IMG/VR virus record: IMGVR_UViG_3300021599_001487 | Strand: one strand, 5' to 3' | Length of the DNA: 64,000 bases | DNA from: an uncultured virus (IMG/VR IMGVR_UViG_3300021599_001487) | Taxonomy: Duplodnaviria; Heunggongvirae; Uroviricota; Caudoviricetes | Part shown: in pieces, positions 25,763-35,957 of the stretch | How the letters are laid out: every line of letters begins with the position of its first letter | How positions within the stretch are numbered: position 1 is the stretch's first letter | Position numbers and translations under genes: made by a program | The notes under the pieces: model-generated | Databases searched by the model: none | What the model was told of the DNA's origin: nothing | The model's input: only the letters and a program-made list of their open reading frames with translations

Positions 25763-27546
25763 TCACTTCTGGTAGCGCCTCCCGAACCATCCCTCTGCGG
25801 CGAGAGGAAAATCCGGAGCCCAGTTAGGTGGTGTGGTCATGGCCGTGACCACACGATCTAACGAGGACTCACCCTGATCCTCGGGAACCAACAGGAGCAA
25901 CTCATCGTGAATGCTGTTGACCACTTCAAATCCGTCCTGATCAAGCCTAAGCATGGCCTCGGTAAGAAAATCACGCGCAGTACCCTGGACCACGCTCTGA
26001 AATATACTCGGACCAATAAGCTTGTTCCTGCCCCACTTCCGGGTGAAGGTGCTCTGGTTTCGGACGGTCAGGCCGTCCCTGATCTCTCCCCAGGGAGTCA
26101 GCTGCTCCTCCACTTTGGGGTCCTGCCAGCAGATGAACCTGCCGCTGGGGAGCTTGAGGAAGAGAGCGCCTTTAGAAAAATTAAACAGGACTTTGCCTGA
26201 CTTCACCGAGGTGCACGGTACCCTCACGGCCTCAATCGCGGCCTGCTCGTACTCGTACCAGCTCTCCTTAACGCGCAGGTACTCCTGTCGGTAGGCCCTG
26301 ACGGCGGCCTCTGCCTGTATCACGCTCAGTGTTACCCCCATCCCCTCGGCGTACTCCACCAGCCCCTTTGAGCCCTGGCCGAACATGGCGCCCAGGACGG
26401 CAGACTTTGCCACCTGCCGCATGTCCTTCGTGACCTCCTCGTACGGGACGTTGTAAAGGCTCTTTGAGGCGAATATCTTGTACTCGTCCAGCCCATCGCG
26501 GAACATCTCGACCTTGTCCTTTTGGCCCGANNNNNNNNNNNNNNNNNNNNNNNNNNNNNNNNNNNNNNNNNNNNNNNNNNNNNNNNNNNNNNNNNNNNNN
26601 NNNNNNNNNNNNNNNNNNNNNNNNNNNNNNNNNNNCGCCCGGTCGATGCGCCGTGGTAGACCAGCGTGTTGCGTATCCTGCCACCGACCTGGACCTCCAG
26701 CATCTTCTCGTACTTGGCGACGCTGGTCAGCGACCCCTGCCGGCGCAGCTCCAGCACGCGCCGTATCTTGTCCGGTATGTCCTTGCGCGCCAGTAGCTTG
26801 TTGACGGTCTCGGCCGTTAGGTCATCCACAACGATATTAGCGGAGCGCAGCCACTCCCCTATCTTGGCCGGCTGGTTGGCGGTTAACCCTCCCGTCAGTA
26901 GGGTTATTTCCGAGCGTATATTGGCCTTGTTGATCTCGACCGCGGCTATGGCATGGTTGAGCTCCGACGGGTCGACCGGCACCCCTCTGTCGTTGATCCT
27001 CTGCGTCAGCTCCCACACCCTCTGCTCCTGCGATGTCATGCGTCGCAGGTCCTTCACCACGGCCATCTCGGTCCGGACGTCCTGCTTGCAGTACTCGTAC
27101 ATCTGAGACAGCAGGTGCGGGTCCCGGTTGAAGGTCTTGCCGTCACGTCCTGGCTTGGACAGTCTCTGTATCAGCCGCTTGCCGGTGGCGTCTTTCTGCT
27201 GCGAGACGTCCAGGAATATCGCGGCGTCCTCCAGGCCCTGCGGTATGTTGGCCGCGGCGGCCATGGCCATGGAGTCGATAAACTGCTCCAAAAACACTGG
27301 CAGCTTGAGCACGTGCCGCATGATGTTGTACTCAAACGCGGCGTTCCAGGCCTGGAACTTGGTCGTCTCGTCCGACATAAAGTCCGGCATTGGCTGTTCT
27401 GCTGGCAGCCAAATAATGGGGTCAGACCCTCTGATTGAGTACGCCATGCAGATCACTTCCGTGCTTGGGTCCCGGGCGTAGCGGTCAAGGCCGTGGGTTG
27501 GGAGGTCTACAAGGCTGCGGGTCTCAAAGTCGATGCTTACGATCAT
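25763..27546 (-). CDS. polA: DNA polymerase family A (spans an N gap)
   Basis: DFETRS and WNAAFE exonuclease motifs, YHGASTG, motif B RQVAKSAVLGAMFG and motif C IHDE. Confidence 0.9.
26531..26635. other. Assembly gap (run of N)
   Basis: 105 N inside the polymerase gene. Confidence 1.
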
Positions 27547-27680
27547 GCGTGCTCCTGTGGCGGGCCGACGTATCGGCGGTTGAATTTGTAACAATTTTAA
27601 TGTTACATGACAAAAAACGTGTTAATAACGTAAACGTGTCCAAAAAACGTGTACACATTTCGGACATTTGTAAACATATC

Positions 27681-31186: not shown

Positions 31187-32316
31187 TTAAAGTCCTCCTG
31201 TGCCGTGTTGTCGTCTTTGACCAGCTTTGGCGATCCCTCGGGCCTTACTATCAGGCTCGAGAGAACGTCGGCCACGTAGCCCTTCTTTGCCAGCTTCTCA
31301 AGCTTTGCGATCGACTTGAGAGACGCCGGCTCCATAATGTCCTCCGACTTGAACCCTTTGTCAAGCAGGACCTGCGTCGCCAGTAGCTCGTCGGATATTT
31401 TGCGGTGGGTCTTGGTTGCCACCAGTGAGTACCCGCGGGGGGTCTTGCCGGTGTTGATGGCGCGCTCGGTGAAGTACGACTCCAGGTCAGACACGTAGGA
31501 CCTGAGCTGGCTGGCGCGGGATAGTGCCAGCTCGAGCTCGTCGTCGGTGAGCAGGGCCGGCTCCCGAAACTCCAACGACGCGACGTCGTTTGCAAAGTCG
31601 GAACGTGCCCTGCAGGTGTGCTTGGCTCGGCAGAATTGGCAGTGGTCCCCGGCGACAAACTCGCCAGTCCCAGACCATGCCTTCTTTGCTTTCGGTTTTA
31701 CGAAGTAGTTTGCCCAGTCGACGAGGCGCGCGAGCGACGTGCCGTCGGTGGTGATGCTGTCGAGCCTTGGCTGGACGATGGTGTACTCGACCTCTTTGAT
31801 GTCTGGGTACTCTTCTTTAAATTTGCTCCAGGCCCCGAGCGCGTAGAGCCGGAGCTGCGAGTTGTCTTTGGCTTCGACGGGGATGCCTTTTCCAAACTTG
31901 AGGTCGATGACTCTGACCTTGTGCTTGGAAAGTATGACGACATCAGCAGTACCAAATCCGTCAGGAGCCCAGTCAGAGTAATCCACACGCTGCTCAAATA
32001 GCGGCCGGTCGCCCTCACCAATCTGGCTGCGGACGTATAGAACATAGTTTGTAACATAGTCTTCAAATTCCTCTGTGTAGTACTGGGACTGTCGGATGAT
32101 GGTGTACTCGCGCTGGTACTCCTCGGTGCCGATCTCGGCGTAGTGGTGGCGCAGCATGATCTCTGCCAGCAGGTGGGCCGTGGTCCCCTCCTGGCTGTAG
32201 TCGAAGTCGCCAGCGGCTCGCTTGAGCTCGGGGAGGCTGGCCTCCAGGCGTGCGCTTGGGGTGCATGTCAGCCATCGCTTGGATGCGCTGGCGGATAGGA
32301 CGGCGTGGGCGGTCAT
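31183..32316 (-). CDS. Cas4-like PD-(D/E)XK exonuclease (DUF2800)
   Basis: HAVLSAS.S.RWL.C, EGT.AH, FGTAD, IDLKFGKG, QL.LYA and HC.FC.AK..C motifs. Confidence 0.88.
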   Translation of the reverse strand: MTAHAVLSASASKRWLTCTPSARLEASLPELKRAAGDFDYSQEGTTAHLLAEIMLRHHYAEIGTEEYQREYTIIRQSQYYTEEFEDYVTNYVLYVRSQIGEGDRPLFEQRVDYSDWAPDGFGTADVVILSKHKVRVIDLKFGKGIPVEAKDNSQLRLYALGAWSKFKEEYPDIKEVEYTIVQPRLDSITTDGTSLARLVDWANYFVKPKAKKAWSGTGEFVAGDHCQFCRAKHTCRARSDFANDVASLEFREPALLTDDELELALSRASQLRSYVSDLESYFTERAINTGKTPRGYSLVATKTHRKISDELLATQVLLDKGFKSEDIMEPASLKSIAKLEKLAKKGYVADVLSSLIVRPEGSPKLVKDDNTAQEDFK

Positions 32317-32360
32317 GTCGTTTTTCCTGTTTCAACGGTTTGTCGTATATCTACTAATGC

Positions 32361-32390
32361 AAAAAGGGCACCGTTTTGGGTGCCCTTTTT
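32361..32390. terminator. Bidirectional intrinsic terminator-like hairpin
   Basis: AAAAAGGGCACC-GTTTTG-GGTGCCCTTTTT. Confidence 0.7.
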
Positions 32391-32424
32391 GGGTACGACC
32401 GTGCTATTTTTTGGTACGACCGTG

Positions 32425-32814
32425 CTAGTCTTTTGCCGCCTTTAGTTGCTTGATAAGGTCATCTACCGCGCCCTTGAAGTCGACCACGACGTCGGCCTTG
32501 ACGTCGATCTTCTGCTCACGGGTCTCTTTGTAGTCCTGGGGAAACTGGCCCCTAAGCGCGATCTCGGCGATGCGGGAGTTAAATGCCTTGTTGCCGACGT
32601 TGGCCAGCATCTCGCGCTCCCAAAAGGCCTGGCTGTGTACCAAGGCAACGCCTAGCGCGTCGGCAAACTCGGGGTGTTTCTTCTCCCAGTTTTTTGCCAC
32701 CTCTCGCGATATGCCCAGCTCGGACCACATCATCTTCTGTGACGCGCCCTGCTTGCCCATCTCGATAAGCTTGTCGCACATCTCGGGCTTAAATACGTGT
32801 TTCTTGGTTGCCAT
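32425..32814 (-). CDS. Putative terminase small subunit
   Basis: N-terminal HTH (PEMC..LIEMGKQGAS......LGIS.....W...HPEF..A) followed by SQAFWE. Confidence 0.6.
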   Translation of the reverse strand: MATKKHVFKPEMCDKLIEMGKQGASQKMMWSELGISREVAKNWEKKHPEFADALGVALVHSQAFWEREMLANVGNKAFNSRIAEIALRGQFPQDYKETREQKIDVKADVVVDFKGAVDDLIKQLKAAKD

Positions 32815-32999
32815 TACTTTGCCGTCTTGGCGGACTCCCTGAACGCTTTGGCCGTGGGGGCGCCCTCAGACCCTGGCTTGCGCATCTTCTCGCCAGATCC
32901 CTTGGCGATGCGCTCGCGCTTGGCGTGGATGTTGGCGTAGAGACCGGGCTTTGCCGATCCGCCTGCTGCCATCTTGGGCATGCACTTAAAGTCGTCCAT
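32814..32999 (-). CDS. Small basic phage protein
   Basis: MAAGG..KPGLYANIHAKRERI..GSGEKMRKPG..GAPT.KAF; RBS AAGGA. Confidence 0.65.
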   Translation of the reverse strand: MDDFKCMPKMAAGGSAKPGLYANIHAKRERIAKGSGEKMRKPGSEGAPTAKAFRESAKTAK

Positions 33000-33013
33000 G
33001 GTCTTCCTTTGTG

Positions 33014-33094
33014 TGGTGGAGTTGCTGGGAATCGCACCCAGGTCCGCGAGGTTGCCGCTTAGGCCTTGGCCCACGTCGAAGCTATTCCAACCCC
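33014..33094 (-). ncRNA. ssrA: Minimal tmRNA (tRNA-like domain only)
   Basis: 5' GGGGUUGGAAUAGCUUCGAC and 3' GGACCUGGGUGCGAUUCCCAGCAACUCCACCA. Acceptor stem with G3:U70, discriminator A, encoded CCA; no tag ORF. Confidence 0.8.
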
Positions 33095-33226
33095 TTATTT
33101 CTTCTTCTCTGCCTTCTTCTCGGCCTTTTTCTCTACCTTGGCATCGGCCTTTTTATCCGCGGCATGGGCCGGCAGGACGGCGATGGACAAGAGTGCCACT
33201 ACCGCGGCGCTGATAAACTTTTTCAT
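33095..33226 (-). CDS. Small secreted Lys/Ala/Glu-rich peptide
   Basis: MKKFISAAVVALLSIAVLPAHA signal peptide (A-H-A site) followed by ADKKADAKVEKKAEKKAEKKK; RBS AGGAG. Confidence 0.7.
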   Translation of the reverse strand: MKKFISAAVVALLSIAVLPAHAADKKADAKVEKKAEKKAEKKK

Positions 33227-33672
33227 GGTCTCTCCTGGTTTGTGTTTGTGCCGGGCTTTCACCGGCCTGCGGGCGTCTCCCGACGTGCCTACTACTACTT
33301 ATGCAGAACCGGGAGGCTTTTCGCCCTTGGCCTGTTGCTTGGCAAGCTCGGCCTTCTTGCGGTCCCTCAGGGCCTCGTTTAGCAGCGTCTTGGTCATGGC
33401 GCTGGCAAGTTCCTGGCGCTTGGCCTCGACGAAGGGGTTCTTAAATGGCTCCAGTAATTTTTTAGGTATTTTCATTTTCTGCCTGTTCCTTTATGAGTCG
33501 TTCAAATAATTCAAACGCCAGCTCTCCGCGCATTTGTATCATCTGCTTGATCCCAAGCAATGCGTTGGCCACGTCCTCGGGGTTTATACTGTCGTGGCGC
33601 TCGTAGTAGTACTGAAACAGTGTCTCCACGTCCTCGGCGGTGCCCCACAAACGCATCAGGGCATCCTCCAGC

Positions 33673-33939
33673 TTAAACCTTGTCATTCTTGGCTCGTTTT
33701 TTAGTCTCACGTTTATTTTCATCCTCTTCGTCTCGTATGGCGTTAAACAGTGTGTCAAACCTATCTCGCAGGCGCGAGCTGAGCTCCTCCAGCCGGTCCG
33801 TGACGTTGTGCATGGCGTACTCGACATCTTTCTTGTTCGCCTCTGGCATGCCGTACGTCAGGACACGGACAGTGCTCTGCAGGACGTCCAGGTCGATGCT
33901 TACGTTTTCGATCTCAATTAAATCATGGTAGTGCCTCAT
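33673..33939 (-). CDS. Hypothetical coiled-coil protein
   Basis: ATGA-coupled to the upstream gene. Confidence 0.5.
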   Translation of the reverse strand: MRHYHDLIEIENVSIDLDVLQSTVRVLTYGMPEANKKDVEYAMHNVTDRLEELSSRLRDRFDTLFNAIRDEEDENKRETKKRAKNDKV

Positions 33940-34244
33940 ACACCCATCTCCCTCTTAATAAACTCTACGGCTCGCTTAAAGTGGTACCGCCAATACTTCT
34001 CCGTCACGCCAAGGTCGGAGGCGTTGCTGCCCATCAGAAATGCCTCCATGACCTCGCGCTGCTTTTGAGGCATTCGGTCTTGAATGACGCGACGTATGTC
34101 GATCATGTCCTCATAGCTCCAGGGCAGCCACCCATCGGATTGCATGCCCGATATGCCCTCGATGTCCTCCTGCTCCATCAAATCCGGCTCCTCGTCAGAC
34201 AGACGAGGAGCGGCGCAGTTCTTTTTATATTTTAGAATTATCAT
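33936..34244 (-). CDS. Sigma-70 region 4-like small protein
   Basis: MPQKQREVME.FL.G....LGVTEK..RYHFKRA...IK resembles sigma region 4. Confidence 0.45.
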   Translation of the reverse strand: MIILKYKKNCAAPRLSDEEPDLMEQEDIEGISGMQSDGWLPWSYEDMIDIRRVIQDRMPQKQREVMEAFLMGSNASDLGVTEKYWRYHFKRAVEFIKREMGV

Positions 34245-35572
34245 GCCTTCAGTGCGTCAAGTACCGCGTCCTGTGCGTCGATCTTTCCATCCAGGACACG
34301 AACCACCTGCCAGTCAATCGTGTTGCTCGCGACGAGGTGGTGGATGATTACAGGCTTTGTCTGGCCCTGCCGGTAGACGCGCGCGTTTGCCTGGATGTAA
34401 TTCTCCGAGCTCCACGGCAGGTCGTACCATACCATCTGCGCCACGTCTCCGACGTTGCACTGCAGGTTCAGCCCAATGCCACCAGACTGCGGGTGTGCTA
34501 GTAGTATCTTGATCTTTCCGTTTCTCCAGTCCTCCATGTTGTTAGCGTTCAGCTCTTGCGCCTCGGGGAAGGCTTCCTTTAGCTTTTGTAGCGCCGTTTT
34601 ATAATGATAGAAAACCAGGGTAGGGTGTTGGTTCTCTTCAACAAGAGACTCAAGGTATTCAATTTTAGCTTTATGAGCCTCGGCTTCACCATCTTCGGAG
34701 TAAAGGGTGCCACTGGTAAACTGTAAAAGCTTGTTGGCCAGCGCGGCCGCAGTAACCGCCGTAATAGTCTTACCTTCGATTTCACTGACCATCTCCTTTT
34801 TAAGTTGTTTGTACTTTTTCATTGTCGAATCATCCAGCTCAATGTTGTGGTAGAGCTTGGTCAACGCCGGCAGCTGCAGGTAGTCCTCCGCGCGCAAGCT
34901 AAAGCAGATGTCAGATATCTTGTCCAGTATCTGGCGGTCCATGCCAGGGCGCGGCGCCCACTTGTAGACGACGTTGGTGTGCCGGTTGCGCTCGGCGGCG
35001 TACATGTAGACGTCTCTAAACTTTGTCAGCGTTGGCTCCAGTCGCTGCCCAAGGTCGAGCATGCCAACCTGGGACCACAGGTCGCCAACGCCTTGGGGCG
35101 TGGGCGTGCCGGTGCAGATGATGCGTCGCTTAAACGTCTTTAGCACTCTCTTTATCGCCTTGAACCGTTTCGTGCTGGGGTCCTTGAACCGGCTGCTTTC
35201 GTCGATTATTAAATAATCGAACAGCCCAGCGGGCCAATGTTCCACCAGCCAGGGGACGTTCTCCACGTTGATCACGTAAATGTCTGACTGACTGTAGAGA
35301 GCTTTCAAACGTTGCTCTGGCGTCCCCATCACTAGCGCCACTCGGAGGTCTTGCAGATGCTGCCATTTTTGACACTCCTGCGCCCATACTGACTCCGCGA
35401 CTCTCTTGGGAGCTATCACCAGGGTCCGCCCCAAAGAGCTCTCCCTGACGATCGTCAGCGCGGTTGCTGTTTTTCCCAGGCCCGGCTCCAGGAAAAGGCC
35501 AACGTGCGGAAGGCTTTTTGCCTGGTGTATCAGGCGGCGCTGGTAGTGGTGTAGGTCTGTCTTTGAAAGCAT
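34241..35572 (-). CDS. SNF2-family helicase
   Basis: PGLGKT, IIDESS.FK, TGTP, SGG.GLNLQ and QANAR..RQGQ. Confidence 0.92.
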   Translation of the reverse strand: MLSKTDLHHYQRRLIHQAKSLPHVGLFLEPGLGKTATALTIVRESSLGRTLVIAPKRVAESVWAQECQKWQHLQDLRVALVMGTPEQRLKALYSQSDIYVINVENVPWLVEHWPAGLFDYLIIDESSRFKDPSTKRFKAIKRVLKTFKRRIICTGTPTPQGVGDLWSQVGMLDLGQRLEPTLTKFRDVYMYAAERNRHTNVVYKWAPRPGMDRQILDKISDICFSLRAEDYLQLPALTKLYHNIELDDSTMKKYKQLKKEMVSEIEGKTITAVTAAALANKLLQFTSGTLYSEDGEAEAHKAKIEYLESLVEENQHPTLVFYHYKTALQKLKEAFPEAQELNANNMEDWRNGKIKILLAHPQSGGIGLNLQCNVGDVAQMVWYDLPWSSENYIQANARVYRQGQTKPVIIHHLVASNTIDWQVVRVLDGKIDAQDAVLDALKA

Positions 35573-35957
35573 TTAGTACCTCTTTTCGTTTGTCGTGCAG
35601 CCAGTCGGCCACGGCGTACAGCTCTTTTTCCGTGGCGTTTGACTTTATCGTGTTTGCAAGGCGAGAAATAAATACCACGTTTCCAATTATGTAGCCAAGC
35701 TCTGGTATCACTCGGTCCAGGGATGGCGAGTTGGGGCTTTTTGATCTGCCGCTGCCGAGGCCGGAGCAGCCCCACTCAAACTCAACGCCAAATACAGGGC
35801 ACGGCTTGTTGGCGATCGACATGAGGTATTCCTTGGTCAAATCGAATGGCACCTTTCGTTTTCTTGCCCTCGCTTTTGCGGCAAACAAAAGGTTAGTTAT
35901 CTGTCCACTTTTGGAGGACCTATACTGGCGCTGTTTTTGATTTTGTAAGGAAGTCAT
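35130..35957 (-). CDS. HNH-like homing endonuclease
   Basis: AKARA....PFDLT.E.L, CPVFG and SPSLDR..PELGY..GNV..IS..AN.IK; the C-terminal tail overlaps the helicase. Confidence 0.7.
   Translation of the reverse strand: MTSLQNQKQRQYRSSKSGQITNLLFAAKARARKRKVPFDLTKEYLMSIANKPCPVFGVEFEWGCSGLGSGRSKSPNSPSLDRVIPELGYIIGNVVFISRLANTIKSNATEKELYAVADWLHDKRKEVLNAFKDRPTPLPAPPDTPGKKPSARWPFPGAGPGKNSNRADDRQGELFGADPGDSSQESRGVSMGAGVSKMAASARPPSGASDGDARATFESSLQSVRHLRDQRGERPLAGGTLARWAVRLFNNRRKQPVQGPQHETVQGDKESAKDV

Follow-up and report, generated by a model that had tools for sequence, protein, structure and literature searches.

A tag-less tmRNA gene in an uncultured phage genome and its relatives in other phages

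The closest described system is the RNA of Mycobacterium phage DS6A. Passages of PMC4131195 list it as 'Mycobacterium phage DS6A (TLD only)' and describe its sequence as 'little more than the TLD', that is, the tRNA-like domain of tmRNA. According to the same passages, which cite Mao et al. 2009, a DS6A-like molecule strongly inhibits tmRNA in E. coli whether or not it can be charged, perhaps via SmpB titration. The relevant section of PMC11915505 (2025) repeats this account of DS6A and adds message-less plastid and mitochondrial forms. In our literature search, DS6A is the only phage for which a tag-less tmRNA is in print, and we found no paper that describes a broad phage family of TLD-only tmRNAs.

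Other described RNAs are related either by lacking the message or by being carried by phages. The mitochondrial RNAs of jakobids and oomycetes (RF02544) and the plastid forms of about 65 bp in Mallomonadaceae share with the RNA analyzed here a TLD without a tag frame, and are thought to act with SmpB, as the section of PMC11915505 on these forms has it. These organellar forms are however the sole tmRNA of their cell and presumably serve to rescue ribosomes, while the phage RNA would be an extra viral copy beside a full tmRNA. The full-length tmRNAs of the mycobacteriophage Bxz1 group, Bacillus phage G and the OM43 phage Melnitz are phage-borne ssrA homologs too (passages of PMC4131195 and PMC9004378), but they keep the tag frame, in one or two pieces, and ARAGORN finds them; neither holds for the RNA described here. 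Finally, passages of PMC4131195 describe an overlap of smpB and ssrA in Carsonella, in which the coding sequence reaches the tmRNA 5′ end and maturation trims the upstream message, and state that it is reported 'nowhere else but in Carsonella'.

Here we analyze a window of 64,000 nucleotides (the whole stretch of DNA under study), which is nearly a whole phage genome. We find that positions 33014–33094 are a real and well-defined phage gene encoding a tmRNA of the tag-less (CDS-less, TLD-only) type. The RNA is not of a new kind, its kind being already published for DS6A; the new aspects of the window RNA are its apparent mimicry of the host and its tight packing between ORFs. A covariance model built from relatives of the window RNA (R1, see below) finds the DS6A RNA at JN698994 28478–28560 with 59.2 bits, a locus that the Rfam tmRNA model misses at its gathering score. 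The two RNAs have in common the 7-bp acceptor stem with G3:U70, the D-loop analog, the P2a helix, an A-rich bulge (GACGAAAACC in DS6A), a small capped hairpin, the T-arm, and the lack of a tag frame. DS6A is a temperate actinophage and its RNA has no encoded CCA. In contrast, the window RNA has an encoded CCA and an alphaproteobacterial signature (AG/UGCGAUU), is the only tRNA-like gene in the window, and is wedged between ORFs in a genome where no integrase was found.

The mini-tmRNA gene and its fold

The initial annotation, made from the letters of the window, had proposed that this stretch encodes a tmRNA reduced to its tRNA-like domain, and both the Rfam tmRNA model and the family model R1 bear this out (Table 1). 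The Rfam model, RF00023, scores 50 bits, above its gathering threshold of 47 (E-value 9.7 × 10⁻¹⁷), and is the sole Rfam match in the window at E ≤ 0.1. Its alignment spans model positions 1–374 and skips 312 of them, with 19 nt in their place. Within the Rfam clan, tmRNA outscores tRNA for the window RNA. The other program named for checking, ARAGORN, gives no call at the gene, and reports no tRNA or tmRNA genes in the whole window.

Table 1. Features of the mini-tmRNA gene and of the adjacent ORFs, in window coordinates.
Feature	Positions	Strand	Basis or remark
Mini-tmRNA gene, 81 nt, tRNA-like domain without pseudoknots or tag reading frame	33014..33094	-	RF00023 50 bits; model R1 85.2 bits
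Acceptor stem 5′ strand GGGGUUG, RNA 1–7, including G3 of G3:U70	33088..33094	-	Covariation at pairs 4–7
D-loop analog GAAUAGCUUCGA, no D-stem, 'AG' variant of the usual 'GG'	33076..33087	-	AG/T-loop association
Central arm: P2a CGUGGG/CUCGCG (RNA 20–25 with 45–50) enclosing bulge CCAAG, hairpin GCC-UAAGC-GGC, bulge AAC	33045..33075	-	Covariation and family-wide layout
T-arm CUGGG-UGCGAUU-CCCAG	33025..33041	-	Covariation; T-loop also in Caulobacter tmRNA
Acceptor stem 3′ strand CAACUCC, discriminator A, encoded CCA	33014..33024	-	Sequence, Rfam alignment
Upstream ORF, 43 aa, signal-peptide-like, Lys-rich (MKKF...AEKKAEKKK; tail …ADKKADAKVEKKAEKKAEKKK)	33095..33226	-	TAA 33097–33095 abuts G1
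Downstream ORF, 61 aa, phrog_16028; ATG 14 nt past CCA, AAGGAAG before it	32814..32999	-	
Next gene, 129 aa, weak match to terminase small subunit family phrog_309	32425..32814	-	

Read along the minus strand, the RNA is GGGGUUG-GAAUAGCUUCGA-CGUGGG-(19 nt)-CUCGCG-GAC-CUGGG-UGCGAUU-CCCAG-CAACUCC-ACCA. The proposed tmRNA-type ends, GGGG...UUCGAC on the 5′ side and GGAC with the T-arm on the 3′ side, are both present, and so is the 7-bp acceptor stem with G3:U70, which together with discriminator A73 and the CCA end makes up the alanine identity set. The rest of the tRNA-like domain is also in place, with a T-arm of 5 bp and a 7-nt loop, a D-loop analog that ends in UUCGAC and indeed lacks a D-stem, and a P2a helix of 6 pairs leaving the domain. 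The RNA is not a full tmRNA, since just 19 nt separate the strands of P2a; a tag frame with resume codon and stop, the pseudoknots, and any conserved frame are absent, as had been proposed. Instead, the ends of the TLD are joined by a short capped P2 arm, which together with the homology to the DS6A RNA assigns the gene to the CDS-less, TLD-only type. Nor does it score as an ordinary tRNA with an anticodon arm: it has neither a D-arm nor a 7-nt anticodon loop, ARAGORN does not call it, and the central arms of the family are hairpins of tetraloop type.

On the central arm, the initial annotation was right about the helix, and what lies inside it can be described in more detail. The 19 nt are not a plain cap; by homology they consist of an A-rich bulge of 5 nt, a hairpin of three base pairs (GCC/GGC) closing a loop of 5 nt, and a second bulge of 3 nt. 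Across the family, the same layout appears as a P2a of 5–8 bp, an A-rich 5′ bulge of the UAAAG or GAAAG type, a hairpin of 3–4 bp closed mostly by a tetraloop (GAAA, GUAA, GCAA, CUUG, CACG, and others), and a 3′ bulge of 1–3 nt. We also considered 'GCC UAA' in this region as a one-codon tag frame, and rejected it: the letters sit in the hairpin, and stops and frames are unconserved across the family.

The fold has strong comparative support. In an alignment of 71 distinct sequences, 97.9% of the cells are standard-paired and 13 of the 18 base pairs have changes on both sides; none of 500 shuffles reaches the observed pairing or the observed covariation score, and controls in which the pairing partners are slid are 40–58% paired. 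A smaller alignment of 23 sequences is 99.0% paired. All three helices (acceptor stem, P2a, and T-stem) covary. In P2a, 5 of the 6 pairs show double changes and the pairs are 95–98% paired, and the T-stem is 100% paired with covariation at 4 of its 5 pairs. Because UUCGAC, GGAC, C66, A73, and the greater part of the T-arm were set in the patterns used to collect the sequences, conservation at those positions is by construction. On the other hand, the relaxed pattern left acceptor positions 1–7 and 67–72 free, so that the conservation of G3:U70 is not built in.

This acceptor stem is conserved in a very uneven way. G1:C72 and G2:C71 are found in 71 of the 71 distinct sequences and G3:U70 in 70 of 71, while pairs 4–6 vary freely. 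The alanine mark thus appears to be under selection, and because G3:U70 is nearly invariant and a pure sponge for SmpB would need no charging, we think that charging probably matters.

Thermodynamic stability does not add to this. The family-consistent fold (-26.9 kcal/mol) and the minimum free energy fold (-27.6 kcal/mol) are of similar stability, and the latter is no better than that of shuffled sequence (z-score 0.01), so the support for the structure comes from homology and covariation, and not from stability. An encoded CCA occurs in 24 of the 69 distinct sequences that could be parsed, as with tRNA genes. At position 33017, a single RNA-library contig of low depth (X19, depth 3) has an A in place of the T, which would change the discriminator from A to U; this could reflect either strain variation or an error.

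A family of tag-less tmRNAs

We searched for relatives with sequence patterns of two degrees of stringency. The strict pattern, consisting of the exact ends of the window RNA separated by a gap of 15–45 nt, occurs in 44 contigs of IMG/VR, which give 23 distinct sequences of 77–82 nt, and has no matches in a collection in which 185,579 species of bacteria and archaea are represented by one genome each. R1 is the covariance model built from these 23 sequences. The relaxed pattern, in which the acceptor stem is left free, occurs in at least 120 IMG/VR contigs with at least 71 distinct sequences. Taking 80 loci from those at least 120 matches, R1 scores at least 50 bits in 75 of them; in the genome collection it does so in 7 of 80 loci, among the matches listed, and the other matches that we looked at there include genuine host two-piece tmRNAs. 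Loci from a further variant of the pattern score 47–65 bits with R1 in three cases (L049–L051), with no match in a fourth (L048). By the matches of the strict pattern, the family is mainly phage-borne.

Standard annotation misses such tag-less tmRNAs, with no ARAGORN calls and Rfam scores that are borderline. None of 23 related loci gives an ARAGORN call for the RNA, so that with the window 24 sequences are without one. As an example, an 81-nt copy lies unannotated inside a tRNA array of LuckySocke, a cultured Streptomyces phage (L045 1488–1568, which is OR725497 17977–18057), with 60.6 bits for R1 and 57.1 bits for Rfam. In phage GiJojo, the stretch that matches the LuckySocke copy lies under a 'hypothetical protein' CDS. 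Copies within large phage tRNA arrays are found at L001, L023, and L032 as well as at L045.

Two further loci are unusual in their composition. A contig from a Prochlorococcus single-cell assembly (L249), which may be phage DNA, has a Pistol ribozyme (54.8 bits, 150–245) that is followed, about 2.2 kb downstream, by a mini-tmRNA (2485–2565, 65.5 bits with the Rfam tmRNA model). A viral contig (L111) has two different mini-tmRNAs 1.2 kb apart, at 174–253 and 1486–1564, one of them with the alphaproteobacterial-type T-loop GGCAGUA and the other standard.

Could the gene be a relic without function, either a piece of a host tmRNA gene of the attP type or simply a tRNA, ordinary or degenerate? Integration at tmRNA genes is common, and the 3′ ends of these genes are often found in phages (PMC10865867, PMC9004378). 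Such a fragment would hold the 3′ part only and would come with an integrase and with prophage junctions in genomes, none of which is what we find. Both halves of the RNA are present and their pairing covaries in full, the host-type gene is permuted while the phage gene is not, and no integrase was found among the 109 window ORF translations scanned; DS6A itself integrates at tRNA-Lys, not at tmRNA (PMC10865867). The strict pattern is absent from the species genomes, and ARAGORN calls no tRNA. Moreover, two close relatives of the window phage, G002 (64,078 bp) and G003 (64,758 bp), are complete genomes bounded by direct terminal repeats, and each has one copy of the RNA. We regard a relic as highly improbable.

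Host-type signature and proposed function

The window RNA differs from most of its family in two loops. Its T-loop, UGCGAUU, has a G where tRNAs have U55. A G at this second T-loop position is found in 6 of 79 parsed sequences, and the D-loop analog reads AG in all 6 of these and in none of the other 73. Such a co-occurrence is the pattern expected if the two loops form a tertiary pair.

The same signature is found in host genes. The two-piece tmRNAs of Caulobacter sp. 17J65-9 (L192) and of a Caulobacterales MAG (L236), which match RF01849 with 243.6 and 214.5 bits, have the T-loop UGCGAUU, the D-analog AG, and ...CAGCAUCGAC. The last 33 nt of the window RNA agree with the Caulobacter sp. tmRNA at 29 positions, and the four differences are two compensatory pair swaps; the RNA of a related clade (L006) agrees with the Caulobacter tmRNA 3′ half at 32 of 33 positions and has the same acceptor stem. 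By terminase large subunit (TerL), the nearest cultured relatives of the window phage are Caulobacter phages, at 43% identity; R1 finds nothing in the cultured TerL relatives RW, a Caulobacter phage, and MW202545, a record from Manatee Spring. The phage RNA looks tuned to an alphaproteobacterial host, and we infer the host itself as well. It is not a simple captured segment, because the RF01849 host gene is circularly permuted, producing two RNA pieces with tag frame and pseudoknots, whereas the phage gene is in standard order and yields one piece in which a hairpin replaces the message. If the RNA tracks host-specific features of tmRNA in this way, it could serve as a signal for host prediction.

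The phage RNA probably interferes with the rescue-and-tag system of the host. The best explanation, in which we place about even confidence, is that it acts as an alanine-charged mimic of the host TLD that would compete with the host tmRNA and suppress ssrA tagging. In the proposed mechanism, the mini-tmRNA would be transcribed within the minus-strand replication-module operon and excised as tRNAs are, with RNase P cutting at G1 and the 3′ end being trimmed back to the encoded CCA. Host AlaRS would then charge it with alanine through G3:U70 and A73. By mimicking the host TLD, apparently that of a Caulobacter-like alphaproteobacterial two-piece tmRNA, it would engage host SmpB and EF-Tu, and compete with the host tmRNA for SmpB and for stalled ribosomes. 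As it has no message, no degradation tag would be added, and the predicted net effect is that ssrA tagging is suppressed during infection. The identity of the RNA, its place in the family, its fold, the kept alanine mark, the host-type signature, and the close fit between ORFs are seen in the data; that it is expressed, processed, charged, and bound by SmpB, and that it affects trans-translation, we infer. Read in this way, the case would be one more sign that the ribosome-rescue and tagging pathway of the host is a target of many uncultured phages.

The initial annotation had offered three possible functions, an SmpB decoy, a rescue RNA without a tag, or a substitute for tmRNA cut by host defenses. 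Of these, the decoy agrees with what the cited passages of PMC4131195 and PMC11915505 report for the DS6A-like molecule. A simpler form of it is a pure SmpB sponge, in which the RNA only titrates SmpB and needs neither charging nor entry into the ribosome. This is in line with the parts that face SmpB (the D-analog, the T-loop, and the top of P2a), which are conserved and host-like. But the inhibition described in the cited work needed no alanine charging, and for that reason the conserved G3:U70 does not follow from a sponge effect alone. A wobble pair without a role in SmpB binding should drift to G:C or A:U, and here it is kept in all but one of the distinct sequences while the adjacent pairs covary; the discriminator A and tRNA-type 3′ ends, either CCA or CCA-less, are kept as well. 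Given the conservation of G3:U70, we favor a charged RNA over a pure sponge, which we consider rather unlikely.

Genome setting and stop-codon junctions

The gene sits in a minus-strand replication module with DNA polymerase, ribonucleotide reductase, a Gp2.5-like SSB, exonuclease, helicase, primase, and a sigma factor; the plus strand carries the genes for structure, lysis, and packaging. No integrase, repressor, or SmpB-like protein is found among the 109 window ORF translations that were scanned. The nearest record compared, G001 (36 kb, 50% shared words), does not cover the RNA region. All sampled words of the region are contained in 16 DNA runs, which are labeled freshwater, lake water, or fungus metagenome. 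In RNA libraries from three studies, two contigs bridge the gene (X17 32611–33162, X18 32520–33255) and two cover part of it (X19 32901–33081, X20 32908–33051), with the proviso that such libraries can hold DNA. The 43-aa ORF upstream (Table 1) has relatives upstream of the RNA in L006/L013 and in L040, and has no PHROG or Pfam match.

Across the family, the neighborhood of the RNA is not conserved. We clustered 535 flanking ORFs from 95 loci, and no neighboring protein family is common to more than 4 of the approximately 50 RNA clades. By eye, one of the two largest multi-clade clusters resembles a head protein. We noticed no translation factor among the shared families in this clustering, although one may be among them.

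The neighborhood bears on the possibility that the RNA is a decoy or shield against host defenses or nucleases, either ones that act on tmRNA or tRNA-like RNAs or ones that sense trans-translation, for instance by drawing RNase R, RtcB-type repair, or SmpB-like sensors. There are indirect leads for this: passages of PMC11662646 describe AcrIIIA1 as binding tRNA and tmRNA fragments, passages of PMC11090510 describe SmpB-like domains in CoCoNuT systems, and an RtcB-like ligase is also encoded by DS6A. In the window, no defense or counter-defense gene is linked to the RNA, and no protein neighbor is conserved across clades; we give this explanation a low probability.

What does recur is a particular arrangement at the 5′ end of the RNA. 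We define a junction as an upstream open frame on the same strand, of at least 40 codons, that ends at -1 to +1 of the RNA 5′ end. Of 98 distinct loci, 24 have a junction, and in 19 of these the stop codon is a TAG whose G is G1. If we group the RNAs into clades at 80% identity, a junction occurs in 9 of 51 clades (8 of 50 without one probable tRNA), to be compared with 12 clades whose upstream frames end somewhere within the 29 positions between -30 and -2. Five clades have the TAG/G1 overlap (L067/L010-type loci, L077, L127, L129, and L051), and in three more, the window's included, the stop codon abuts the RNA or falls 1 nt short. In the clade of the L067/L010-type loci, whose RNA has 77 nt, a terminase-small-subunit-like gene (phrog_309) is directly upstream and the next ORF starts 12 nt past the CCA.

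That such junctions recur suggests that maturation of the RNA is connected with non-stop translation. A cut by RNase P at G1 would leave the upstream message in the window ending exactly at its stop codon, and in the five TAG/G1 clades excision of the RNA would strip the last base from the upstream stop codon. The initial annotation had also proposed unusual mRNA ends, attributing them to ribozyme-cut transcripts, and we find no support for this attribution, a search of the window against Rfam at E ≤ 0.1 having given no ribozyme family. With the upstream stop codon abutting G1, such ends would arise from the excision of the mini-tmRNA instead. The arrangement is similar to that of Carsonella, where a coding sequence also reaches the tmRNA 5′ end and its message is trimmed in maturation; the phage junctions, unlike that of Carsonella, recur across clades and have upstream genes that are unrelated to smpB.

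Two further explanations start from the junctions. The first is that the RNA acts in cis as punctuation, a signal for RNase P and tRNA processing by which the polycistronic mRNA would be cut, setting the 3′ end of the upstream message and a short 5′ leader for the downstream one. The window fits this well, with its TAA abutting G1 and the next ATG a few nucleotides past the CCA; in the region 32300–35700 we found no sigma-70-like promoter and no minus-strand terminator-like site, and the excess of clades at -1 to +1, five of them with TAG/G1, points the same way. Yet about 40 of 50 clades have no junction, several copies are in tRNA arrays, and in the window's own clade the abutting ORF is missing in 3 of 5 loci. 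Moreover, any tRNA-like fold would serve as a cutting signal, which would make the tmRNA motifs, G3:U70, and the host-type T-loop superfluous. These tmRNA-specific and host-specific motifs argue against mere punctuation, and we judge it unlikely.

The second is that the mini-tmRNA is a charged, working ribosome factor and not a passive sponge. Matched to the tRNA-like domain of the host, it would accept the nascent chain of a stalled ribosome and add alanine to it without a degron. Its excision would create its own substrates, the upstream messages that end at the stop codon or lack its last base, and the RNA and the upstream gene would form a 'non-stop expression' module. If true, such a module would be a phage counterpart of arfA and of the Carsonella smpB feedback loops, and it strikes us as an improbable one. 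We continue to prefer an alanine-charged mimic that competes with the host tmRNA.

Two other features of the replication module in the window are worth recording. A run of 105 Ns at 26531–26635 lies inside the DNA polymerase region, where the polymerase matches are split between two minus-strand ORFs, 25763–26506 and 26332–27594. In addition, the first 125 residues of the minus-strand ORF at 35130–35957 match HNH and endonuclease VII families, and this ORF overlaps the start of the helicase gene (34241–35572, minus strand) by about 440 nt in another frame.
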